A DNA stretch of 64,000 nucleotides from an uncultured Bacteriovoracaceae bacterium (GCA_964012805.1 CAXGUD010000007.1:32001-96000); one strand, 5' to 3'; shown: positions 14,492 through 28,979, counted from the stretch's first letter. Notes: generated by a model not told the origin, from the sequence alone. Numbers and translations are program-made.

Positions 14492-14845
14492 ATGTCTCAA
14501 AAAGTAGAAGCTTTAGGAATGATCGAAACGAGAGGTTTTGTCGCTATGGTAGAAGCCTCTGATGCAATGGTTAAAGCTGCTAATGTTCAGCTTGTGCGTT
14601 ATGAGAAAACTGGTGGTGGTTTTACAACTGCTGTCATAAGAGGAGACGTCGCTGCTGTTAAAGCCGCTATTGAAGCCGGTGAAAGGGCCGCTGAAAAAGT
14701 TGGGGAGCTTGTTTCTGTTCATGTCATTCCTAGACCTCATGCGAATGTTGATCTTGCTCTTCCACTTGGTGGGAAACATGAAGGTGCTGGTTACCAGGGT
14801 TCTAGAAAAGAAGTTTATGTTCAATCTGAAGGACCAACTGCTTAA
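14492..14845 (+). CDS. BMC-H microcompartment hexamer shell protein with C-terminal extension
   Basis: [27 protein letters not shown]...[10 protein letters not shown]...VHVIPRPH (Pfam00936 type). Confidence 0.97.
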
Positions 14846-14876
14846 GAGATTCATATTAAATTTGATCAAATATTTG

Positions 14877-14920
14877 GGGGAAGGGAAAGAGAAGAAAATC
14901 GACTCCCTTCCTCTTTTTTT
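14877..14920 (+). terminator. Intrinsic terminator-like hairpin after BMC-H
   Basis: GGGGAAGGGA (14877-14886) pairs with TCCCTTCCTC (14904-14913, one GU), 17-nt loop, followed by T7. Confidence 0.55.
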
Positions 14921-14965
14921 CTGTGGTCAATAGGAATATTAAAAAGGGACTTTAGGGAGCAATCA

Positions 14966-15256
14966 ATGCAAATTGGTAAAATTATTGGAACTGCCGTTTC
15001 TACAAAAAAAGATGAAAAACTAGAAGGGCTTCGTTTTCAAATAGTTGAATATATAGAGCCCTCTGGAGAGTCAACAGGTAACCATGTTATTGCAGTCGAC
15101 TCTGTGGGAGCAGGAGTAGGAGAAGTGGTTTTAGTCGCATGTGGTAGTTCTGCCCGTCTTACAAACACTTCAAAGGACAAACCAGTAGATGCCATTATAA
15201 TGGCGATTGTAGACTCTTTAGAAGGAGAAGGGAAAACCTATTACCAGAGCTACTAG
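14966..15256 (+). CDS. BMC-P vertex protein (EutN/CcmL family) 1
   Basis: GKIIGTAVSTKKDEKLEG...AVDSVGAGVGEVVLV..GSSAR...PVDAIIMAIVD. Confidence 0.96.
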   Translation: MQIGKIIGTAVSTKKDEKLEGLRFQIVEYIEPSGESTGNHVIAVDSVGAGVGEVVLVACGSSARLTNTSKDKPVDAIIMAIVDSLEGEGKTYYQSY

Positions 15257-15358
15257 AGTATTTATTCACGAGAAATTTTAATTAAGTCAGTTTAGATTCT
15301 TTGTTTGAAAGGTTTAAGCAATGAAGACAATTGAACGAAGATCCGGAGAAAGAACGCT

Positions 15359-16825
15359 ATGAATTTTACTGATCAACAAATTAACTCTATCGTTGATAAA
15401 GTCATAGGACAACTTTCAAACACGAAGGGAAGTCCTGCGGAAGCTGTTAAGGAGGGGACCAAGGAGAGTTCAAAGTCCATACCCTCCAATTATATCACCT
15501 ACCCTCAATCATCTGGAAAGTTAGGTTGTTTTCTCGATATTGATTCCGCTATAGAAGCGGCTAGAAAAGCTTTTGAGGAATACAAGCTGATACCCTTAAA
15601 GCAAAGAAAAAAAATAATCGAAGCAATAAGAGTAATATGCCTTGAAAATGTAGACGAGATGTCCAAACTTGCTGTTGAAGAAACTGGTTTAGGAAGAGTT
15701 GCAGATAAGGTAAATAAGAATATTCTTGCCATTGAAAAAACCCCAGGAGTAGAGGACCTAAAGCCTTATACTTATACTGGAGACGATGGTTTAACTCTTT
15801 TGGAAAGGGCACCTTTTGGTGTTATTGGAAGTGTAACACCTTGTACGAATCCTTCAGAGACCATTATAAATAACGGAATTGGTATGATTGCTGGTGGAAA
15901 CTCCGTTGCTTTCAATCCACACCCTTCCGCCAAAAAAGTCTCTGCCTTCACAGTGAGCCTTATGAACAAGGCGATAATATCTGAGGGGGGACCTCCAAAC
16001 CTTCTTACAACAGTTGCGAATCCAACTATTGAATCGGCCCAAAAATTAATGGTTCATCCAAAAATTCGACTCCTTGTCGTTACAGGTGGACCTCATGTTG
16101 TGAATCAAGCAATGAAATCTGGTAAAAGAGTTATTGCCGCAGGACCTGGTAACCCTCCTGTTGTTGTTGATGAAACAGCTGACTTGGATAAAGCAGGTTG
16201 TGACATCGTGAAAAGTGCAAGTTGCGATAACAATATTATTTGTGTTGTTGAAAAAGAAATTATTGTAACTCATGCAGCTGCTGAAGGTCTAAAGAAGTCT
16301 CTCATTAAGCATGGAGCCGTGGAGTTAAGCCCTTACCAAACAAGGCGTTTAGAGAAGGTTGTTCTTACAGAGAATAAAAAGGCTAACAAAAAATGGGTTG
16401 GTAAAGACGTTCAGGAAATTTTAAAAGAGATTGGAATGGACGTAGATCCATCAAAAAGGTTGGCTTTTATGGAAACCAAGGCCGATCATCCTTTTGCAGT
16501 TGAAGAACTGCTTATGCCTGTTATTCCTCTTATTAGAGTTAAAGATATAGATGAGGCGATAGAGCTTGCTTACAAACTCGAAAAAAACTGCTTTCATACA
16601 GCAGCGATCCACTCAAAAAATATAGATCATATGCATAAAATGGCGGTGAAGATGAACTGCTCAATTTTTGTAAAAAATGGACCTGCTCTTGCTGGACTAG
16701 CGATGGAGGGGGAAGGACCAACGACTTTTACAATTGCTTCTCCTACTGGTGAAGGAAACACGACGGCCCGTCACTTCACAAGAACAAGACGGTGCGTTTT
16801 ATCAGGAAATTTTAGAATCACCTGA
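15359..16825 (+). CDS. CoA-acylating aldehyde dehydrogenase (EutE/PduP family) with N-terminal encapsulation peptide
   Basis: ETGLGRVADK, APFGVIGSVTPCTNPSET, VVTGGP, AGPGNPPVVVDE, DNNIICVVEK (catalytic Cys), ASPTGEG; N-terminal helix DQQINSIVDKVIGQL followed by a linker. Confidence 0.95.
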   Translation: MNFTDQQINSIVDKVIGQLSNTKGSPAEAVKEGTKESSKSIPSNYITYPQSSGKLGCFLDIDSAIEAARKAFEEYKLIPLKQRKKIIEAIRVICLENVDEMSKLAVEETGLGRVADKVNKNILAIEKTPGVEDLKPYTYTGDDGLTLLERAPFGVIGSVTPCTNPSETIINNGIGMIAGGNSVAFNPHPSAKKVSAFTVSLMNKAIISEGGPPNLLTTVANPTIESAQKLMVHPKIRLLVVTGGPHVVNQAMKSGKRVIAAGPGNPPVVVDETADLDKAGCDIVKSASCDNNIICVVEKEIIVTHAAAEGLKKSLIKHGAVELSPYQTRRLEKVVLTENKKANKKWVGKDVQEILKEIGMDVDPSKRLAFMETKADHPFAVEELLMPVIPLIRVKDIDEAIELAYKLEKNCFHTAAIHSKNIDHMHKMAVKMNCSIFVKNGPALAGLAMEGEGPTTFTIASPTGEGNTTARHFTRTRRCVLSGNFRIT

Positions 16826-16863
16826 TAAATTTTAGATTTTAGTGTAAAGGAATGTTTTAATTA

Positions 16864-18231
16864 GTGAGACCAGAGAATAAAACCAAAGATATTATGCTAA
16901 GAATGAGAAATGCTGGCGTTGTTGGTACTGATAAATTGTCCGTGCCAACTTACGTTAAGTTATCATCTAAAGCCGATTTGGTCATAGCAAATGGAGCGGA
17001 GTCTGAGCCTCTTTTACATTCTGAAAAGTCCCTTCTCCATGAAAAACCAGAACTTATTATTGACGGCATAAAAATAGCTATGGAAGCTACTGGGGCGCCT
17101 AAAGCCGTGATAGCTGTTCGTTCTTCTGAGAAAGAAAGAATGAGGTCTCTTTACTCACTTTTAAAAGAAGAGAAGAACATAGATATCTTCTATTTGGAGG
17201 ATTTTTATCCATCTGGAGATGAACCTATCCTAGTTTACGAGGTGACTAAAAAATTGATTCCCGAAGGGAAGACACCTTTAGATAAGGGAATTGTTGTAGA
17301 GAAGCTTTTAAGTTTTGCTTGGATGTATCAAGGTTATCATGGGAAACCAGTTACAGAAAGACCGATAAGTGTTGTTGGCGAGGTCCAAAGACCTCAGGTC
17401 ACTTGGTTTCCAATTGGGACTCTTTACAAGGATATTTTAAATTTTGCAGGTGGAACAACAGTTGATCTAAAAAATGCTGTTGTTTTTGATGGAGGACCTC
17501 TTCAAGGTGAGGTTGTTAAGGACCTAAATATTGGTATAGGTAAAAATACATCAGCCGTCATGGTGTTACCTAAAGACCATAAAGTTTCAAAAGTAAAAAT
17601 GAAAAATTTAGAGGAAATGATCCTTCAAAATCAGGGAGTCAGTGGTGACAGCTCTATGATGGAAGACCTTTGTCCCCGCTATCAATTGGGGTATGATATT
17701 CATCCATCTGAGGTCATAAAAAGTCTTCATTTTCCTTTGATGATGAAACCTTCTTCTTTGAGATCAGCTTACTCATGTAACGACTGCTCATTATGTGAAT
17801 ATATGGGGTCCTCGACTTTAAATGAATCCCCTCGATTAATTTATAATGAATTTAAAAAAAATCTTGCTCGTCAGGAAAAGAAAGTTTCTTTAAAAAGTGG
17901 TGAGAAAGTAAATAAAGTAAGGTTAAACTACCATTATAACAAAGTTTCATGTTCTCACTTAATCAAGCAGGTTCAAGTTGAGAAGTATGATTCTTTTAAC
18001 CGCTCGATCCTTCCAAAAACAAACCCTCAAAAAGTTCGGGTACCAGTGACGAGGCACAAAGGAACTCCAGCTAAACCTGTCGTTGTTGAAGGTCAAACTT
18101 TGAAAATGGGAGATGTTATTGCTTTTTCTCCTCCCGGCGAATTGGGGACAACTTATCATGCCTCTATTCCTGGCAGAGTGAGTGAAATTAATGATCACTG
18201 GGTTGAGATTATTAAAGGGAGGAATTCATGA
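16864..18231 (+). CDS. PduS/RnfC-like SLBB-domain protein, degenerate
   Basis: NGAESEPLL, FYPSGDE, VGEVQRP, GGPLQG, CPRY, CNDCSLC, C-terminal HKGTPAKPVV...YHASIPGRV. Confidence 0.88.
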   Translation: MRPENKTKDIMLRMRNAGVVGTDKLSVPTYVKLSSKADLVIANGAESEPLLHSEKSLLHEKPELIIDGIKIAMEATGAPKAVIAVRSSEKERMRSLYSLLKEEKNIDIFYLEDFYPSGDEPILVYEVTKKLIPEGKTPLDKGIVVEKLLSFAWMYQGYHGKPVTERPISVVGEVQRPQVTWFPIGTLYKDILNFAGGTTVDLKNAVVFDGGPLQGEVVKDLNIGIGKNTSAVMVLPKDHKVSKVKMKNLEEMILQNQGVSGDSSMMEDLCPRYQLGYDIHPSEVIKSLHFPLMMKPSSLRSAYSCNDCSLCEYMGSSTLNESPRLIYNEFKKNLARQEKKVSLKSGEKVNKVRLNYHYNKVSCSHLIKQVQVEKYDSFNRSILPKTNPQKVRVPVTRHKGTPAKPVVVEGQTLKMGDVIAFSPPGELGTTYHASIPGRVSEINDHWVEIIKGRNS

Positions 18232-18794
18232 AAGAACCTACCTTAGGGATGATAGAGCTAAAATCTGTAGCAAGAGGTATTGTTGTTACAGATGCTATAG
18301 CTAAAAAAGCACAGGTGAAAATATTAGAGGCCCACGCGGTCCAGCCAGGTAAATTTATTATTTTAATCTGTGGTGAAGTAGCAGATGTTGAAGAGTCCTT
18401 GAAAGAAGGTGTTGAGGTCGGCTCCGACTTTATTATTAATTACCTCTTCCTTCCTTACATACACAGAGACATAATTCCGGCTTTGAAGGGCAACCTTGAA
18501 AAAGAGAAAAAAGGTCCTTTGGGATCCGTTGGTATTTTGGAGTCTTTTTCTATGGTCTCTTGTGTAAGGGCCTTAGATATTGCTTTAAAAAATACACCCT
18601 TAAAGTTACTGGAAGTTCGACTTGCTAAAGATTTAGGGGGGAAAGCCTATTTCGTTTTAAGTGGTCTTCTACCTGATGTTCAGGACTCTTTAAAGCTAGC
18701 AAGTGATTCAGTGAAAGAAGAGGGAATGTTGACGAATGTCGAAATAATACCAAACCCTCATTCAGACCTTATTGAGAAAGGTCTCTATTGGTAG
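18228..18794 (+). CDS. PduT-like BMC-T shell protein
   Basis: Tandem BMC domains LGMIELKSVARG...PGKF and VGILESFS...LAKDLGGKAY...IIPNPH; ATGA overlap with the pduS-like gene. Confidence 0.92.
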   Translation: MKEPTLGMIELKSVARGIVVTDAIAKKAQVKILEAHAVQPGKFIILICGEVADVEESLKEGVEVGSDFIINYLFLPYIHRDIIPALKGNLEKEKKGPLGSVGILESFSMVSCVRALDIALKNTPLKLLEVRLAKDLGGKAYFVLSGLLPDVQDSLKLASDSVKEEGMLTNVEIIPNPHSDLIEKGLYW

Positions 18795-18803
18795 GAATTA
18801 AAT

Positions 18804-19109
18804 ATGAAGTTAGCAAAAGTGATCGGTACAGTTGTTTGTACGGTAAAAGATCCTTCTTTAGATGGTCAAAAGATCCTTCTCATTCAACCTTTGGATGATG
18901 ATCAAAAACCGGCCGGGAGACCAATCGCCTCAGTCGATACGGCCAAGGCCGGAGAAGGTGATTTGGTTTATTGGGTATTATCGAGAGAAGCTGCTTTTGC
19001 TCTTCCCAATTCATTTGCCCCTGTGGACTCTGCAATCGTGGGGATTGTTGATGATGTTCATAAAGAAGACGTAGGCATAACAAATAAAGAAGAAATTTTT
19101 AGAAATTAA
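18804..19109 (+). CDS. BMC-P vertex protein 2
   Basis: MKLAKVIGTVVCTVKDPSLDG...AGEGDLV...PVDSAIVGIVD. Confidence 0.95.
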   Translation: MKLAKVIGTVVCTVKDPSLDGQKILLIQPLDDDQKPAGRPIASVDTAKAGEGDLVYWVLSREAAFALPNSFAPVDSAIVGIVDDVHKEDVGITNKEEIFRN

Positions 19110-19130
19110 AGTGAAAGGAAGGCCTAAAAG

Positions 19131-19406
19131 ATGATTTTAGCAAGAGTAATAGGAAATGTGGTTTCTACAGAAAAGCACCCTTGTTACAAAGGCCATAAGA
19201 TTATGATTGTCCAACCAGTCAATGCTCACGGTGAGGATAAAGGATATTCCTTTTTATCTTGTGATGCTACTCAAGCGGGACCAGGTGACCTTGTTTTAGT
19301 TCAGCAAGAAGGAAATACAGCAAGGCAATTGTTGGGAACAAAAAATGATCCATTCCATTCCGTCATCGTAGGGATTGTTGATGAGATTCATGTTCCAAAG
19401 GAATAG
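19131..19406 (+). CDS. BMC-P vertex protein 3
   Basis: MILARVIGNVVSTEKH...AGPGDLVLV..EGNTAR...HSVIVGIVD. Confidence 0.95.
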   Translation: MILARVIGNVVSTEKHPCYKGHKIMIVQPVNAHGEDKGYSFLSCDATQAGPGDLVLVQQEGNTARQLLGTKNDPFHSVIVGIVDEIHVPKE

Positions 19407-19444
19407 TTTAAAAAGTATTAATTAAAAAAATTGAAAAGAATAAT

Positions 19445-20392
19445 ATGGGAGAAGGTCAAATGATAGAAAAAAACACGAACTTGGAAGACGTTGTGTCTCT
19501 CATTAGTAAGAAGGTTGCAGAGAGGCTTAATGGTCAAATGACAGGAACAAATCCCTCAACGACTCATAAAATTGAAAAGAAGACTGAGGAAAGCGCAAAT
19601 GATTACAATCAAGAGCTAGCTTCAATGATTGATCACACTTTTTTAAAGCCTGAGGCTTCTAAATGCCAACTAGAGAAATTATGCGAAGAAGCAAGAGCTT
19701 ATAAGTTTGCTACAGTTTGTGTTAATTCTTGTAATATTCCTTTGGTAACAGAGCTTTTAAGAGGTTCTTCTGTTAAGCCTATTGCTGTTGTTGGTTTTCC
19801 TCTTGGAGCAGCGACGACACAATCAAAGGTCTTTGAATCAAAGGAAGCCATCAATCAGGGTGCAAGAGAGATTGATATGGTTGTTAACCTTGGGGCCCTA
19901 AAAAGCAAGGACTACGGGACAGTTTTTGAAGATATCAAGCAAGTTGTTGAAGCATCGGCTCCTTATCCAGTTAAAGTCATACTAGAGACTTCGAGTCTTA
20001 ATGATGAAGAAAAAGTCGTTGCTTGTGCTCTTTCAAAAACAGCGGGAGCTGCTTTTGTTAAAACTTCAACTGGTTTTGGTGGCGGCGGAGCAACTGTTGA
20101 CGACATTAAATTAATGAGGCGTATTGTTGGCAATTCAATCGGTGTTAAAGCTTCGGGTGGAGTCAGGACAACTCAAGACGCCAAAAATATGGTTGAAGCT
20201 GGAGCTAACAGAATTGGTGCTTCTTCAAGTATCTCTATTGTTAAGTTATCCTCTGATACAAGTAGTACAAAAGGCGGAAGAAAAACCTATGGCAAAAGAT
20301 ATGAGAGAAAACCTTATGTAAGAAGAGGATCTCGAGTCGTAGGATCTTCAACGATAGCGAAACCTCAAACTGGAAAAAGTGGGGGCTATTAG
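19445..20392 (+). CDS. deoC: Deoxyribose-phosphate aldolase with N-terminal encapsulation peptide and long basic C-terminal tail (start may be 19460)
   Basis: IDHTFLKP, VVGFPLGA, EIDMV, KVILET, FVKTSTGF, GVKASGGVR, RIGASS; N-terminal helix LEDVVSLISKKVAERL. Confidence 0.95.
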   Translation: MGEGQMIEKNTNLEDVVSLISKKVAERLNGQMTGTNPSTTHKIEKKTEESANDYNQELASMIDHTFLKPEASKCQLEKLCEEARAYKFATVCVNSCNIPLVTELLRGSSVKPIAVVGFPLGAATTQSKVFESKEAINQGAREIDMVVNLGALKSKDYGTVFEDIKQVVEASAPYPVKVILETSSLNDEEKVVACALSKTAGAAFVKTSTGFGGGGATVDDIKLMRRIVGNSIGVKASGGVRTTQDAKNMVEAGANRIGASSSISIVKLSSDTSSTKGGRKTYGKRYERKPYVRRGSRVVGSSTIAKPQTGKSGGY

Positions 20393-20506
20393 AATAAGTT
20401 CCAAATCTTTCAAAGAAATTAAGACGGATATTAAGTATTCAATATTAAAAACTAAATAATTAAATAATTACATAATTAAAATTTTAAGACTATTAGGGAG
20501 TAAAGA

Positions 20507-21157
20507 ATGTCAAAAGCGAATTTTGAATTGAGAACGTTAAGTTTTATAGACAGCCTTCAACCACAATTGGCCCAATATATGGCAAAGGATAATAGAGTTT
20601 ATGATCCTGAGGAGTATGATTCGGCCCTTTTTATTGAAATTGCCCCCGCCATGGAAATTCATGAAATGATTGATATTGCCCTCAAGTCAACAAGCTGTCG
20701 TCTTGGAACAGTTGTGACTGAGAGAGTTTTCGGCCTTATGGAAGTTCACCACAAAGATCAAGGTGAAGTAAGAGAAGCAGGCCACGCGATTCTTGAAGCG
20801 ACAGGCCTCACTGAAGGTGACCGCGCTGAAGTCAAAGTCATGTGTAATAAAATTATTAGAAGTATTGAGCAAGACCACTCCATTATGTTTACAGGGCTTT
20901 CCAGAGGAAACATGGTTCTTGCTGGTGAATCAGTCTTTATTATGGAAGTAACTCCAGCTGCTTACCTTTCCGCTGCTTGTAACGAAGCTTTAAAAGCTGC
21001 TGACGTTAAGCTTATTGATGTTAAGCCTTATGGTGCTTCTGGAAGGCTTATTATGAGTGGTGAAGAATCACAAATTGATTCAGCTGCTGAAGCTGCCAAT
21101 AAGCTTATTGCTAACTTAAACCAAATGAAAGAAACAGGCGGAAATCAATTAGGCTAG
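20507..21157 (+). CDS. Circularly permuted BMC-T (BMC-Tdp, CsoS1D/CcmP-like) shell protein
   Basis: ELRTLSFIDSLQPQLA, EIAPAMEI, VTERVFGLMEVH, EVTPAAY, ACNEALKAA, GASGRLIMSG. Confidence 0.92.
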   Translation: MSKANFELRTLSFIDSLQPQLAQYMAKDNRVYDPEEYDSALFIEIAPAMEIHEMIDIALKSTSCRLGTVVTERVFGLMEVHHKDQGEVREAGHAILEATGLTEGDRAEVKVMCNKIIRSIEQDHSIMFTGLSRGNMVLAGESVFIMEVTPAAYLSAACNEALKAADVKLIDVKPYGASGRLIMSGEESQIDSAAEAANKLIANLNQMKETGGNQLG

Positions 21158-21208
21158 AAAGGAAACCCTTTCACCGAGTCTTAAGTAAAGTTTATCAGGA
21201 ATAAAAAA

Positions 21209-21979
21209 ATGGGGAATCGGAGAGAATATATAATTAGAGGCATTGTTGATATTTGCAGTAAGCTTGATCAAAAAGGGTTTGTTGCAAATCATGATGGCAA
21301 CGTGACAGCTAAGTTTGAGGATGGTTTTCTCGCGACTCCTACAGCAGAGGCGAAAGCCGCTATTACTCCTGAGATGATTTTAGATCTTGATAAGGAAGGA
21401 AAAAAGACTGGTGGGATTGGGAAGCCTTTTAGTGAATTGAACCTCCACCTTGCTGCATATAATGAAAGGGAGGAAGCTCGGGCCGTTGTTCATGCTCACC
21501 CTCCCTTTGCAACAGCAAGAGGGCTTGTGGGAAAACCACTCGAAATTTCTCTTCCTGAAGCCGTTGTTTCCATTGGTCACATCATTCCCGTAGCTGATTA
21601 CTCCATGCCGGGTAGTGTTGCTAATGATCGAGTCGTGTGCGAAGCTTTAAGACAAAGTGATGTCTTCATGATTGCAGGCAATGGTGTTTTAAGTATTGGT
21701 AAAAACTTAGAAGAAGCCTATTTGAGAGTGGAACTTCTAGAACATGTGGCCAAGATTGATTTTTATGCTACTTCTATGGGACCAGTGATGACTTTGCCAG
21801 AAGCTGACCTTCAAAAGCTTTTAGAAAAAAGAGCAAAGCTTGGTTTAGGGCCTAAAGCTTCCAATCACGTTACGAAAAATATTTTGGAAAATTATGATCA
21901 AGAAAAAGATAATATTCAATTTGGTCAACTCCAGGATATTATTGCTAAGGAAGTAAACCGGTATCTTGAAAATTCTTAA
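21209..21979 (+). CDS. Class II aldolase/adducin family (FucA/RhaD-like) with C-terminal encapsulation peptide
   Basis: ANHDGNVTAK, ATPT, SELNLHLAAY, VVHAHPP; C-terminal helix QLQDIIAKEVNRYL. Confidence 0.88.
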   Translation: MGNRREYIIRGIVDICSKLDQKGFVANHDGNVTAKFEDGFLATPTAEAKAAITPEMILDLDKEGKKTGGIGKPFSELNLHLAAYNEREEARAVVHAHPPFATARGLVGKPLEISLPEAVVSIGHIIPVADYSMPGSVANDRVVCEALRQSDVFMIAGNGVLSIGKNLEEAYLRVELLEHVAKIDFYATSMGPVMTLPEADLQKLLEKRAKLGLGPKASNHVTKNILENYDQEKDNIQFGQLQDIIAKEVNRYLENS

Positions 21980-22008
21980 AACGACTTAGACCTATTGAGG
22001 AGTAACTT

Positions 22009-22770
22009 ATGAGAGTTCCTTTTATCGCAGGCAATTGGAAGATGAATATGACAATCGCTGAAGCGGTTGAACTAGTCAATGGCATTCAGATTGGATTGAA
22101 GTGGCCTGAAGAAGTGGACGTGGTGGTTGCTCCACCTTTTACTGCATTAAAAATGATTTCTGAGGTTTCAAAAGATAGTTATATAGCAGTTTCAGCCCAA
22201 AATATTCATCAAGAAGAAAATGGCGCCTATACCGGTGAAATAGCTGCTTCATTCGTGAAGGATGCGGGCGCAACTTATGCCATCATTGGTCACTCAGAGA
22301 GGCGTCAATACTTTGGTGAAACTGATGAGGTGGTTAATAAAAAAGTAAGAGTTGCTTTAAAGCATGAACTTAAGCCTATTGTTTGTGTTGGTGAAACATT
22401 AGAGCAGCGGGAAAAAGGTGATTTTTTCACAGTCATCGAAGAACAGCTTTCAAAAGGCTTAGAAGACCTGACAAAAGTTTTGGCCTCTGAGATCGTCATT
22501 GCTTACGAGCCAGTATGGGCCATTGGAACTGGGAAAGTGGCGACTCCAACTCAAGTTGAAGAAGTTCATGAGAAAATAAGAAATTTCCTTAAAAAGACTT
22601 TTTCTGATGAAGTGGGAGAGTCTGTTCGAATCCTCTATGGGGGAAGTGTAAAGCCTAGTAACAGCCAGGAAATTCTGGCCCTTCCAAATGTTGATGGAGC
22701 TCTTGTTGGGGGAGCGAGCTTGAAGGCGCCTGATTTTATAAATATAATAAAAAGCCTTCCGTCAAAGTAG
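22009..22770 (+). CDS. tpiA: Triosephosphate isomerase
   Basis: AGNWKMN, IIGHSERR, AYEPVWAIGTG, YGGSV, LVGGASL. Confidence 0.98.
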   Translation: MRVPFIAGNWKMNMTIAEAVELVNGIQIGLKWPEEVDVVVAPPFTALKMISEVSKDSYIAVSAQNIHQEENGAYTGEIAASFVKDAGATYAIIGHSERRQYFGETDEVVNKKVRVALKHELKPIVCVGETLEQREKGDFFTVIEEQLSKGLEDLTKVLASEIVIAYEPVWAIGTGKVATPTQVEEVHEKIRNFLKKTFSDEVGESVRILYGGSVKPSNSQEILALPNVDGALVGGASLKAPDFINIIKSLPSK

Positions 22771-25676: not shown

Positions 25677-28600
25677 TTATCTCGACTTTCCAACACACCA
25701 TCCATGAATACTACACTTTCTAGCCCCATCACATTCGCAGTCATTTGCGCATTGATTTGATCCACGTTTATTTTTCGCCTCATCATGATAGTAATTTTTT
25801 GATGTACAGCTTGGAGGTTTTGGCTTTGGTTTAGGCTTCGGTTTCCGAGCTTCTCCTTGACACCATTTCCACGGAGAGCAAGTTCTTTTCCCATCACATT
25901 CACAGTCATTATCACATTGATTCGGCCCTCTTTTATTTGATGACTCATTATGTTTATAATCAGGACTTTTACAGTTCTTAGGATTAGGCTTAGGCTTAGG
26001 CTTAGGCTTTAGTTTATCCTTTTCTTTTGGTTTCCGGGCTTCACCTTCACACCATCCCCAAGGGGAACAGGTCCTCTTTCCATCACATTCGCAATTATTG
26101 TTGCATTGATTAGGGCCCTTTTTATTTTTAGCTTCATCATGCTTATAGTTAGGACTTTTACAGTTTATGGGTTCAGGCTTAGGCTTAGGTTTTGGTTTTG
26201 GTTTTGGTTTTGGTTCCCTTGCCTCCCCTTCACACCAGTTATAAGGAGAACATGTCCTCTTACCGTCGCAATCGCAATCATTATCACAACGGTTTGAACC
26301 TTTTTTATTTTTAGCTTCATCATGTTTATAGTCTGGGCTCTTACAGTTTACTGGCTCAGGTTTTGGCTTAGTTTCCGGTTTAGGTTTAGGCTCTCGTGCT
26401 TCCCCTTCACACCAATTATAGGGAGAACACGTTCTTTTTCCGTCACAATCGCAGTCATTATCACAACGATTTGAGCCTTTTTTATTTTTAGCTTCGTCAT
26501 GTTTATAGTCTGGACTCTTACAGTTTATAGGTTCTGGCTTCGGCTTTGGCTTTGGCTTTGGTTTAGGTTTAGGATCTCTTGCTTCACCTTCACACCAATT
26601 CCATACAGAGCAAGTCCTCTTTCCATCACATTGACAATCATTACTACAAGTATTCGGACCTGATGGATTTTTTGATTCATCCACATTGTAATTGGGATCA
26701 GTACATGAAAGATCTTTATCAACATTGATATTTTTATTGGGATCAGTTTCTTCCTTAGTATCTAGTGGTAAAATTTCAGACCGACCTATAAAAGGACCCT
26801 TATGATAGAGGTTATAATTTAAATCGTGAAAGAATCTTTCTCCATCGCTATTATTAAATATTCCTACGAAAAAATTATCTGAATCAACTAAAAGAGTTGT
26901 TTCTAAATTTACCATACCTCCTGATGAGGTTTGTATAGTTTTTTGTGTCGTCCAGGTTTGACCATCACTACTTGTTGCAAGTGAAACTTTATAGACTTGG
27001 CTTTGATTTGTCGTTTGATTCGTTTCTTGATTTTTAACTTTTATTAAGCGGTTACTGGCAGTTGCAAAGAAGTTAAAATGATAAAGGCCTTGCATTTTAA
27101 AAAGGTGAATTGAGTTTTTATAATTTCCATATTGACTTTGAACCTTTCTGGAAAGACCAAAAGGGAACGTATTTTTTATATTTTCACCACCTATGGGAAG
27201 AAGATGACCCTTCAAAACTTTCCCATTATTAATTCCTAAAATCTTCTCACAAGTTCCGATTCTATGGTGTCCATAACCAGATCCCACAGGGCTACATTTT
27301 CCTTCATATTTAGCTGGGCATTTTGGGTAGGCACATCCAACAAACCCTGTTTCCTTTAAATTAACTCCTGTCTGCATCTGTCCATTAAAAAAACAGCTCT
27401 CACATTTATTTTGGCAGGCGATGTTTATACCACCAAATTTGGGTTCAAGGCAGGTCGTGAGTCCTACATTGGAGGTAGGATTATCTCTATGGATGAAGTA
27501 TAAGACCTTAGTTTGTTTTATTTTCGTTACCTCTTTAACCCTATTTTCAAACCATTCTTTAGAAATAGGCTGATCTTCTCTTTCCGGAAAAGCAAGAGAT
27601 GAAAGGTTATATCCTCCAAGGAAAATAGTCCCATTGACTTTTAAATTACCATCAACTTCCAGTTTCTCACTACCAGACTTTGGAATTCCAAATGATACAC
27701 CGGGTTTTATTTGAAAAGAGTTTTCATTACCCATTTTAATTTTTTCTCTTAAGCCTCTTGGCGAGACTGTTTCAAAATACCCTCCTCTTAAAAGGTAGAA
27801 CTGGTCATCTTGATTTGTTTGGAAATCTGAAAAAAGTGAGAGAGTTTCACTTTGTTCTTGAATATCAATGCCAATTTTTAGATCTAAATTTTTTCTTGCT
27901 TCTTTTTCACTTTCAGAATCTAATCCACCCCTTTTTAATGAAATCTTAGGTATCGAACTGAAGCTTCCGCCTTGTTCATCATTAATTAAAATATTTTTTG
28001 GGCTTCCTTTTAAAATTTTAATTCTTTTTATAGAGGCATCAGATTTAAAGTGTTTATCAGTAAGAGAAGATTTTAAAATATGATAAGTTTCAACGGCTCC
28101 TTCAGAAATTTTTGAAAGAGTAATCGATCCATTTTGTATTTTACTATTTGTAACAGAGTCGTTTTTAAGATTATTACCTGATATTGATCCAGTATTTATT
28201 TTGCTTGAATCAATGGCATTATTTTCAATATCTTTAACTTTAATTTCCAATATTTTAGGTTGCCACTTCTTTATGGATAAATTAAAGGATAAAATAGACT
28301 GGCAGTCATCATTACATTCGGCTTGATCCTTTTCTTCTTCTTTGAGGGGAAGAGTATCAGAAAAATCAAGGAGTTTGGAGGTCTCTTTTTCTATTTGCTC
28401 GAAGCTATAATCACCTTTTTGAGGTAAAATGGTGCCCTCTCTTCCCATAAAATTGGAAACTTTACCTGTATTTTCTATTTTTTGCCATTTTTTACCGTCT
28501 GAAATGGCCCAGTCTCCTTCATACCAGTTCTCTTTTTTATCTCTATCTAAAACTGATGCTTTACCAGATTTTGTAACAATAAAGTAATGACCACGGGGAG

Positions 28601-28979
28601 GGGGATCTTCCAAACCTCCAGGTGACCTAGATTTTTCTATATTCCAATTACCCCTTAGTTTAAGTCCACTCAAAGGAGAAGATATCCATTTTTTATTGTA
28701 AAACTTAAGAAGATTTCCATCATTTATTTGAAACCCTGATAAGTTATCTTTTGATAAAGAATTATTCTTAATTTTTTCTATTGTAATAGAATTGTCAGTA
28801 AAGGATCTTCCATCTACGGAATTATTTCTAATATTGGGAATTATGATTGAAAAATTATTTTGAGTGTAACAATCAATTGAAAATAAAAATAATATAATGA
28901 ACGATATGGGGCACCTTAATCTTTTGATAAGATTAATAATTTTTAATTTATGAATAAATTGACTAATTTTAAGTCCCAT
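25677..28979 (-). CDS. Phage-tail-fibre-like surface protein with C1q-like head and C-terminal Cys-rich repeats
   Basis: SITxxKI repeats, WYEGDWAISDG, GREGTILPQKGDYS, EKLEVDGNLKV, GLYHFNF; six 6-Cys modules at the C-terminus. Confidence 0.65.
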   Translation of the reverse strand: MGLKISQFIHKLKIINLIKRLRCPISFIILFLFSIDCYTQNNFSIIIPNIRNNSVDGRSFTDNSITIEKIKNNSLSKDNLSGFQINDGNLLKFYNKKWISSPLSGLKLRGNWNIEKSRSPGGLEDPPPRGHYFIVTKSGKASVLDRDKKENWYEGDWAISDGKKWQKIENTGKVSNFMGREGTILPQKGDYSFEQIEKETSKLLDFSDTLPLKEEEKDQAECNDDCQSILSFNLSIKKWQPKILEIKVKDIENNAIDSSKINTGSISGNNLKNDSVTNSKIQNGSITLSKISEGAVETYHILKSSLTDKHFKSDASIKRIKILKGSPKNILINDEQGGSFSSIPKISLKRGGLDSESEKEARKNLDLKIGIDIQEQSETLSLFSDFQTNQDDQFYLLRGGYFETVSPRGLREKIKMGNENSFQIKPGVSFGIPKSGSEKLEVDGNLKVNGTIFLGGYNLSSLAFPEREDQPISKEWFENRVKEVTKIKQTKVLYFIHRDNPTSNVGLTTCLEPKFGGINIACQNKCESCFFNGQMQTGVNLKETGFVGCAYPKCPAKYEGKCSPVGSGYGHHRIGTCEKILGINNGKVLKGHLLPIGGENIKNTFPFGLSRKVQSQYGNYKNSIHLFKMQGLYHFNFFATASNRLIKVKNQETNQTTNQSQVYKVSLATSSDGQTWTTQKTIQTSSGGMVNLETTLLVDSDNFFVGIFNNSDGERFFHDLNYNLYHKGPFIGRSEILPLDTKEETDPNKNINVDKDLSCTDPNYNVDESKNPSGPNTCSNDCQCDGKRTCSVWNWCEGEARDPKPKPKPKPKPKPEPINCKSPDYKHDEAKNKKGSNRCDNDCDCDGKRTCSPYNWCEGEAREPKPKPETKPKPEPVNCKSPDYKHDEAKNKKGSNRCDNDCDCDGKRTCSPYNWCEGEAREPKPKPKPKPKPKPEPINCKSPNYKHDEAKNKKGPNQCNNNCECDGKRTCSPWGWCEGEARKPKEKDKLKPKPKPKPNPKNCKSPDYKHNESSNKRGPNQCDNDCECDGKRTCSPWKWCQGEARKPKPKPKPKPPSCTSKNYYHDEAKNKRGSNQCANDCECDGARKCSIHGWCVGKSR
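25680..26705 (-). repeat. Six tandem ~43-aa six-cysteine modules separated by (KP)n linkers
   Basis: Consensus C-x4-Y-x-(H/V)-(D/N)-E-x-(K/S)-N-x2-G-x-N-x-C-x-N-(D/N)-C-x-CDG-x-R-x-CS-x3-W-C-x-G-x-(A/S)-R; linkers PKPKPKP. Confidence 0.95.

Follow-up and report, generated by a model that had tools for sequence, protein, structure and literature searches.

An SPU5-type bacterial microcompartment locus from a Bacteriovoracales host, with an electron-export site predicted to be lost and an altered class II aldolase

Bacterial microcompartment (BMC) loci of the SPU5 type are catalogued as always carrying an aldehyde dehydrogenase (AldDH) and never a ribose-phosphate isomerase (RPI); of the eight loci described, four have a deoxyribose-phosphate aldolase (DERA) and five a PF00596 aldolase; encapsulation peptides (EPs) on AldDH and aldolase, a triplet of BMC-P genes and sometimes a BMC-Tdp are further traits, the BMC-Ts is PduS-associated and carries a pore cysteine, and the AldDH is nearest to that of HO loci (PMC8217296). 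A later account gives the same EP pattern plus a triosephosphate isomerase (TPI), and places the aldolase EP at the C-terminus (PMC11585597). In the MNdh/BMC-TSE electron-export module, MNdh carries NADH electrons via FMN and three 4Fe-4S clusters, and every BMC-T paired with MNdh is described there as having a pore cysteine (PMC11626177). The stretch analyzed here, 64,000 nucleotides from an uncultured Bacteriovoracaceae bacterium (the window; contig C7:32001-96000 of genome G000, 4.47 Mb and rated 100% complete), contains 11 co-oriented open reading frames (ORFs) at 14492-22770 that, by gene order and similarity to catalogued loci, almost certainly encode an SPU5-type BMC. Judged from sequence comparison, what is new in this known locus type and host group is a conserved, repeated loss of the electron-export site together with an altered aldolase.

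The closest catalogued counterpart has an identical 11-gene order: L033, titled Bdellovibrionales GWA2_49_15 (A2X86_), which is listed as an SPU5 host; of the five hosts curated for this type, two are Bdellovibrionales (PMC11585597, Dataset S1). Its shell ORFs (97, 186, 102, 95 and 216 aa) have the lengths given in the catalogue trees, which also include a Halobacteriovoraceae SPU5 BMC-H of 117 aa (PMC8217296). L041 has the first ten genes in matching order, and the titles of both loci fit two of the curated hosts. The window locus and L033 agree in EP termini and in the lack of RPI, phosphotransacylase (PTAC) and alcohol dehydrogenase; all proteins share 55-79% identity except MNdh (36%), with BMC-H at 79% and BMC-Tdp (216 aa in L033) at 74%. 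An aldolase-based search, from which the best 79 of 312 loci were taken (L022 and L023 were left out as content duplicates of loci already in the set), found the complete order in 12 loci and the first ten genes in five more, and SPU5 gene order is also seen in Aminicenantes and Gammaproteobacteria. Among named loci, L036 (Bacteriovoracales) is the nearest, with 79-93% identity except in MNdh; its neighboring FabI shows 88%. DERA (PF01791) and AldDH with intact motifs lie within the locus, as does a BMC-P triplet with two of its genes adjacent; there is no RPI (PF02502), a PduS homologue adjoins the BMC-Ts, and the EPs are placed, by sequence, as in SPU5. Because the BMC-Ts pore motif is QPGK and lacks the cysteine, the locus was filed as an SPU5 variant and not as a typical member. 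It further differs from SPU5 in a degenerate MNdh, a Lys/Arg-rich insertion in the DERA tail, a host that has an EP-bearing candidate satellite aldolase, and a locus TPI that is the host's sole TPI.

The HO BMC of Haliangium ochraceum shares with the window locus one BMC-H, a BMC-P triplet, a cysteine-less BMC-Ts, an AldDH with an N-terminal EP, and a class II aldolase that falls in the His28 clade (see below). However, HO has two BMC-Tdp, no DERA in the main locus and PduS/T only as a rare satellite, whereas here the genome has a single BMC-Tdp, and DERA, MNdh and TPI belong to the operon. The preliminary description of this DNA had proposed an uncatalogued SPU/HO hybrid. A new hybrid type is ruled out by the gene-for-gene match to the catalogued L033, which removes the claimed novelty; a deoxyribose-5-phosphate (Dr5P) metabolosome related to SPU and HO, in a Bdellovibrionota host, is the part that stands.

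The degenerate PduS/MNdh homologue (16864..18231, + strand; PF01512, PF10531 and PF13375) and the PduT-like BMC-Ts (18228..18794, +; Pfam/NCBIfam profiles and motif comparison) resemble the MNdh/BMC-TSE module in gene adjacency, in four domains and in predicted pore docking (PMC11626177), but five of nine cluster-ligand positions (four in MNdh and the pore cysteine) and the glycine loop are lost. In MNdh, the glycine loop is replaced (16924-16947), ECEP has become ESEP, and the four cysteines of one 4Fe-4S cluster are replaced by S260, S263, M266 and S316 (codons at 17641, 17650, 17659 and 17809, +, by alignment); the other cluster's four, C270, C305, C308 and C311, are kept. Three of the lost cysteines belong to the first ferredoxin motif; the fourth is the final one of the second. 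In the usual ferredoxin pattern, three cysteines of one motif and the last of the other ligate one cluster, and only 2 of the 70 ways of losing four of eight cysteines remove exactly one cluster's set. The BMC-Ts pore reads QPGK in place of CPGK (Q39, codon 18342-18344), so that neither the CP(G/S)K pore nor the eight cysteines with a glycine loop that mark the module are present. With five cluster-binding cysteines gone, the through-shell electron wire is very probably non-functional. The altered cofactor sites of the PduS-like, PduT-like and class II aldolase proteins had gone unnoticed in the preliminary description, and a literature search, with most subscription papers outside its reach, found no earlier report of the MNdh/BMC-T cysteine losses or of the aldolase alteration.

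The loss is not confined to the window protein. The same cysteines are missing from seven sequences among the window protein and 118 database matches (P0001, the protein itself, and P0068, with 28% coverage, were dropped), and a column census of 58 aligned MNdh found 52 intact, six without exactly one cluster's four cysteines and none mixed. The pore cysteine is kept in 15 of 17 SPU5-order loci, being Gln in L036 and Ser in L043. Among 29 BMC-T in a phylum sample, 24 have neither an MNdh within ~1.5 kb nor a pore cysteine and three have both; the two with MNdh but no pore cysteine are those of G000 and G195, and the MNdh of G195 has lost the same four cysteines. A metagenome scan for degenerate MNdh yielded only two loci from 327 candidates. 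In a motif-masked tree of 80 rows (P0006, a fragment, and 18 distant outgroups dropped), the window lineage (seven rows) and the pair P0035 and L221 each have an eight-cysteine sister (SH-aLRT 100). A single clade for the loss was rejected by the approximately unbiased test (30 of the 80 rows; p=0.0007), the group having been defined by motif after the first tree had been seen. By these trees, the MNdh cysteine loss arose at least twice.

Two of the loci concerned have compositions of their own. In L043 (Myxococcales; 730-2652 and 5617-7517) the in-operon MNdh has an altered glycine loop and eight cysteines and is accompanied by a Ser-pore BMC-T; a second, intact MNdh and a pore-cysteine BMC-T lie inverted just upstream. 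L221 (5073-11073; from G195) is shortened to BMC-H, one BMC-P, AldDH, a degenerate MNdh, a Ser-pore BMC-T and BMC-Tdp, without DERA, aldolase or TPI within 19.5 kb, and is a possible step towards HO.

Selection on the degenerate gene is relaxed but still purifying: the dN/dS of MNdh is 0.083 against L110 and 0.25 against L036 (synonymous sites being near saturation in the latter), with 0.027 and 0.041 for AldDH in the same comparisons. A complex model of MNdh with BMC-T scored 0.75 against 0.00 for the best of three controls, a mark attained by 116 of 157 solved pairs and by 2 of 215 mismatched ones, counts that apply only roughly here; the runs agree in at least 79% of contacts and partner pLDDT is at least 86. 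Since the model sets the former ligand region on the pore loop (MNdh 257-265 and 317-319, around the lost ligands, touch BMC-T 39-42), the lost clusters would be the two on the shell side. An earlier guess from NuoF cysteine spacing, that the lost cluster is FMN-proximal, was dropped given this placement; the profile did not align the relevant part of NuoF.

The altered MNdh might still be a redox enzyme in which FMN and the remaining cluster oxidize luminal NADH and pass electrons to oxygen or a small carrier, so that NAD+ is recycled inside. The invariant ligands of the remaining cluster (cluster B) and several invariant flavin-domain residues, the purifying selection, the second lineage (P0035, L221), which keeps most of its glycine loop, and a published mention of oxygen as a possible acceptor (PMC11626177) speak for this reading. 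On the other hand, the glycine loop of the window lineage consists of bulky, charged residues that differ between close relatives, MNdh is only 55% identical to that of L036 whereas AldDH is 89% identical (an intact MNdh pair at equal AldDH distance shares 88%), and the gene is lost outright in L024. A redox role is accordingly considered rather unlikely. Because the electron-passing pair has lost five cluster-binding cysteines yet stays conserved, the organelle likely recycles its cofactors by a route other than MNdh/BMC-T.

The second altered component is the class II aldolase-fold protein (21209..21979, +; PF00596). It has the FucA fold (Foldseek TM to target 0.90, predicted structure) and retains Glu76, His95 and His97, equivalent to Glu73, His92 and His94 of FucA, as well as the Asn29 and Ser72 equivalents. 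Asn158 (21680-21682) occupies the column of FucA His155, which we take to be the third metal ligand, and an extra histidine, His28, stands in the FucA Thr26 column. Of the FucA phosphate pocket (Asn29, Thr43, Gly44, Ser71 and Ser72, with Glu73 catalytic; PMC11841055), Gly44 is replaced by Ala46 and Ser71 by Phe74. Thus, the fold and five equivalent residues are shared with FucA/DrdA (Ald2), but identity is only 24-29%, and neither the three metal histidines nor the phosphate pocket of these dihydroxyacetone phosphate (DHAP)-dependent aldolases is complete; the protein is likely not a standard DHAP-dependent aldolase. The substitutions are lineage-wide. In FucA numbering, Asn155 and Phe71 are found in 29 of 29 SPU5-order rows, and the 62 rows with His28 comprise 57 with Asn155 and five with His155, whereas 23 of the 24 rows that lack His28 have His155, and the remaining one is a truncated SPU5-order fragment. 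SPU5 and HO-type aldolases form one clade in a quick tree (65 rows, SH-aLRT 99), from which L054 (a fragment) was dropped and in which the branches of E. coli FucA, RhaD and AraD are long and unplaced. The HO shell is the main structural BMC model; that its aldolase clade mostly lacks the metal ligand speaks against the fuculose or fructose-1,6-bisphosphate chemistry that has been assumed and offers a simple assay target.

The locus aldolase gene is strongly conserved (dN/dS 0.053), so its product would serve as a scaffold or else be an enzyme whose site has been rebuilt; a mainly structural role is given even odds. An active enzyme, with the metal site rebuilt by His28 and a different, perhaps non-phosphorylated sugar split to a second aldehyde, would be the missing signature chemistry common to SPU5 and HO organelles. 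Consistent with this, Glu73, His92 and His94 are kept in all 62 His28 rows, the well-supported clade spans both locus types, loop 23-27 of FucA borders the active site (PMC11841055), and the fold is also found in decarboxylases and oxygenases. The role of His28 at the metal site is putative, though, the Gly44-to-Ala and Ser71-to-Phe changes alter the phosphate pocket, and no feeding kinase or isomerase is among the 11 genes; this alternative is a serious one but is judged the less probable. A published hypothesis has TPI and the class II aldolase make fructose-1,6-bisphosphate from glyceraldehyde-3-phosphate (GAP) and DHAP inside the shell (PMC11585597), and in the 12 loci with the full order TPI does come directly after the aldolase or the aldolase's duplicate. 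Yet the protein has the FucA fold and not that of the FbaA family, a separate FbaA (41% to E. coli) is on C80, the metal and phosphate sites are altered, and the EP-less TPI, the only one, is needed in the cytosol, which makes this scheme very improbable here.

A stand-alone class II aldolase elsewhere in the genome (C33:17977-18750; L128:1456-2229) keeps all its sites intact; its C-terminal EP-like helix is conserved in G001 and G002, and it groups (SH-aLRT 98) with the second aldolase inside operon L055. Its identity as cargo is somewhat favored. Its substrate could tentatively be 5-deoxy- or 5-methylthio-ribulose-1-phosphate from MtnA. The catalogue describes no SPU5 satellites, satellites being defined there from shell genes (PMC8217296). 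A third, tail-less and intact class II aldolase lies directly upstream of mtnA (C9:71965-73658; L149; TIGR00512 over cut-off), an arrangement known from 5-deoxyribose salvage, where the aldolase gives DHAP and acetaldehyde (PMC6079011), and this candidate DHAP-shunt pair might serve 5-deoxyribose or methylthioribose salvage. All three class II aldolases of the genome score under each of the NCBIfam cut-offs shown. Tandem in-operon aldolases were seen in L045 (10001-11548), where both are Asn-type, and in L055 (9968-11600), where one is Asn-type and one intact.

The remaining enzymes of the locus keep their catalytic motifs. AldDH (15359..16825, +; PF00171) reaches 655 bits against a cut-off of 403 with PRK15398, is 53% identical to E. 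coli EutE and has intact catalytic motifs. DERA/DeoC, the signature enzyme (19445..20392, +), scores 271 bits against a cut-off of 117 with TIGR00126 and keeps D144, K206, K235 and the terminal Tyr; a close relative from SPU6 was shown to be active on Dr5P (PMC11585597). The catalytic motifs of TPI (22009..22770, +; PF00121) are likewise intact, and it has no terminal extension. EP-like helices were located at the N-termini of AldDH (~15368-15418) and DERA (~19478-19531) and at the aldolase's C-terminus (~21899-21973), with best 14-residue hydrophobic moments of 0.54, 0.49 and 0.56, respectively. The moment alone supports them modestly, the 90th and 95th percentiles of all 14-mers of the four enzymes being 0.47 and 0.53. 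The helices are nevertheless conserved across orthologues, an EP-less DeoC paralogue scores 0.26, and AlphaFold2 predicts a helix at aldolase residues 231-255 after a low-confidence linker, all of which bears out the terminal extensions noticed earlier. Ahead of its terminal Tyr, DERA has a 48-residue stretch (20246-20389, +) with 12 Lys/Arg and two acidic residues, which is similar in L036 and absent from the other 16 SPU5-order DERAs; Lys/Arg-rich disordered regions of Hodarchaeales shell proteins are reported to bind DNA (PMC12747264).

The explanation that, taken as a whole, is moderately favored is an SPU5 operon degrading Dr5P with a non-functional electron relay; the main substrate taken separately, Dr5P, is assigned with considerable confidence. 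NupC, thymidine and purine nucleoside phosphorylases and Cdd would supply deoxyribose-1-phosphate from salvaged deoxynucleosides: the cluster C8:88139-92790 encodes a homologue of thymidine phosphorylase (39% identical to E. coli DeoA) beside a putative purine nucleoside phosphorylase, cytidine deaminase and NupC, as read from sequence. A phosphohexomutase-family enzyme would replace the missing DeoB, a candidate stand-in being a 606-residue frame on C3; phosphohexomutase-family enzymes can be phosphopentomutases. The encapsulated DERA would then split Dr5P into GAP and acetaldehyde, and AldDH would convert acetaldehyde to acetyl-CoA and NADH. Because PTAC is missing, the locus has no alcohol dehydrogenase and the MNdh/BMC-T wire is predicted to be cut, CoA and NAD(H) would pass to and from the cytosol by way of the gated BMC-Tdp pore, by which acetyl-CoA has been proposed to exit where PTAC is absent (PMC11585597); NAD(H) could dispense with this route if the remnant MNdh were an internal oxidase. 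The degenerate MNdh would remain bound to BMC-T, acting as a plug or structural partner. The GAP formed would exit the shell, and TPI, being EP-less and the cell's only one, likely works in the cytosol. The locus aldolase would most likely be a core-packing protein with an EP, a role already proposed for the weakly active RPI of SPU loci, which is absent from SPU5, and the intact EP-bearing C33 aldolase would be the likelier second source of aldehyde.

Several observations weigh against this explanation. The predicted docking may reflect family likeness, because the model alignments consist mostly of intact homologues, and MNdh, which keeps flavin-domain residues P28, K32, N43, E46 and E48 and one full cluster, may still be a redox enzyme. 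An EP-less second DeoC (C1:236589-237356) could carry out the same reaction in the cytosol. Searches for DeoB found none (TIGR01696 gave no match and PF01676 one weak, 71-residue match), so the Dr5P supply rests on the putative stand-in. The residues Glu76, His95 and His97, the gained His28 and the low dN/dS of the locus aldolase would fit an active enzyme equally well. Finally, no C33-type aldolase is among the PF00596 matches of G016 and G022 (87% and 99% complete), both of which have the SPU5 locus, so the C33 partner is not obligatory.

The Pfam scan agrees with the preliminary description that the 11 ORFs include no RpiB, PTAC, alcohol dehydrogenase or acetate kinase, and the satellites for which it recommended a search did not emerge. 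The single RpiB match (C10:80266-80733) has the catalytic-region Cys but no EP and is a lone housekeeping copy, which rules out a satellite RpiB; the sole Fe-dependent alcohol dehydrogenase (C26) lacks a terminal extension and lies in an unrelated cluster; and PTAC, like DeoB, gave no match. No EutB/EutC/EutL module was found in the genome, which does encode Pta-AckA and Acs. G000 and G002 have no TPI besides that of the locus; in G000, gap and pgk on C86 have no TPI beside them, and because two same-family SPU5 genomes, G016 and G022, carry two copies, the operon gene seems to have displaced the native one here.

An uncatalogued SPU/HO hybrid burning several prey-derived deoxy-sugars, fucose and rhamnose included, could draw on a host placed in Bacteriovoracales by L036 and on an SPU5 AldDH nearest to that of HO. 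Nevertheless, besides the match to L033, searches with E. coli queries, which very divergent homologues could escape, found no fucI, fucU, fucP, rhaA, rhaB or rhaT, only a distant FucK-family match was present, and the locus aldolase lacks the metal ligand; in a genome rated complete, the fucose/rhamnose substrate suggested earlier is not supported, and the isomerase and kinase that a PVM-type fucose/rhamnose BMC would call for were not found by these queries. The locus also occurs outside predatory phyla, and the host retains several costly amino-acid pathways: trp, leu, ilv, met and pheA homologues were found, with his and arg genes mostly not found. Bdellovibrionota average 7.89 auxotrophies (PMC11988736) and Halobacteriovorax isolates have genomes of 3.1-3.4 Mb (PMC12724312); the retained trp, leu/ilv, met and pheA genes would be atypical of obligate predators. 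The hybrid reading is therefore regarded as highly improbable.

Judged by L036, its nearest named relative, the host, a marine bacterium, appears to belong to Bacteriovoracales. Of 23 listed runs, 8 contain at least half of the words of the stretch, and five of them carry the label marine metagenome. Since 9 of 41 relatives have BMC-P genes and 29 of 401 genomes in the phylum a PduT-like BMC-T, such loci are a regular minority within the phylum. The locus type and its presence in Bdellovibrionota metagenome-assembled genomes are already catalogued and hence ordinary. Genes of the locus have a GC content of 38-44% against 35% genome-wide, and in quick trees its aldolase groups with Aminicenantes loci and its MNdh with a Myxococcales locus, neither with other Bacteriovoracaceae-titled loci; GC and placements together hint at transfer.

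A decaying operon without a working organelle would fit the three genes with altered cofactor sites and an MNdh that evolves faster than in intact loci. All ORFs are open, however, dN/dS is 0.005-0.12 for the other genes compared, the DERA, AldDH and TPI motifs are intact, and RNA-library contigs, as weak support, fall on parts of six genes, which makes decay highly improbable. These contigs, from two studies, amount to 10 pieces of 148-380 nt on the operon, all listed pieces on a neighboring 9.2 kb control stretch being at most 38 nt. Expression is thereby only weakly hinted at, because the runs were picked for containing the operon and the control stretch is not proven silent; three of the six listed RNA runs contained next to none of the words of the stretch. 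Promoter and terminator scans were uninformative (14 promoter-like sites against 19.9 expected; 13 terminator-like sites against 7.8 +/- 3.1 expected).

More tentatively, SPU5 loci may record a repeated path to the HO organelle, in which the wire is dismantled from the pore inward (first the pore cysteine, then the shell-facing cluster, then the gene) and the MNdh body is kept docked at the pore in a structural or regulatory role; the His28/Asn158 aldolases common to SPU5 and HO would form a distinct family of enzymes or pseudoenzymes, paired with a satellite EP-bearing aldolase that feeds in an aldehyde derived from a 5-deoxypentose. This broader scenario is speculative. If true, it would allow a direct test of aldehyde metabolosomes without internal NAD+ recycling, and of HO function; how NAD+ is regenerated in metabolosomes that lack either recycling system has been posed as an open question (PMC11626177). 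The losses also constitute a conserved exception to the universal pore cysteine, arisen at least twice and comparable with intact sister loci.

The shell genes complete the inventory, which Pfam and NCBIfam scans of the ORFs confirmed in all 11 genes as first listed. The BMC-H hexamer (14492..14845, +; PF00936) has 117 aa with a C-terminal extension of ~25 aa. The three BMC-P pentamers (PF03319) are encoded at 14966..15256, 18804..19109 and 19131..19406 (all +). BMC-Tdp, of the gated double-stacking trimer type, lies at 20507..21157 (+) and scores 192 bits with the CcmP model, under its cut-off. No shell genes were found elsewhere in G000 by genome search. On other contigs, C45:2529-20272 and C47:15466-21825 resemble, by sequence reading, myo-inositol catabolism with an ABC importer and reductive pyrimidine degradation, which suggest uptake of dissolved substrates. 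Downstream in the window, a protein of 1100 aa (25677-28979, -) has four scytovirin-domain matches (PF20888, E 4.5e-60) with Pro-Lys repeats between them and is a possible surface lectin.

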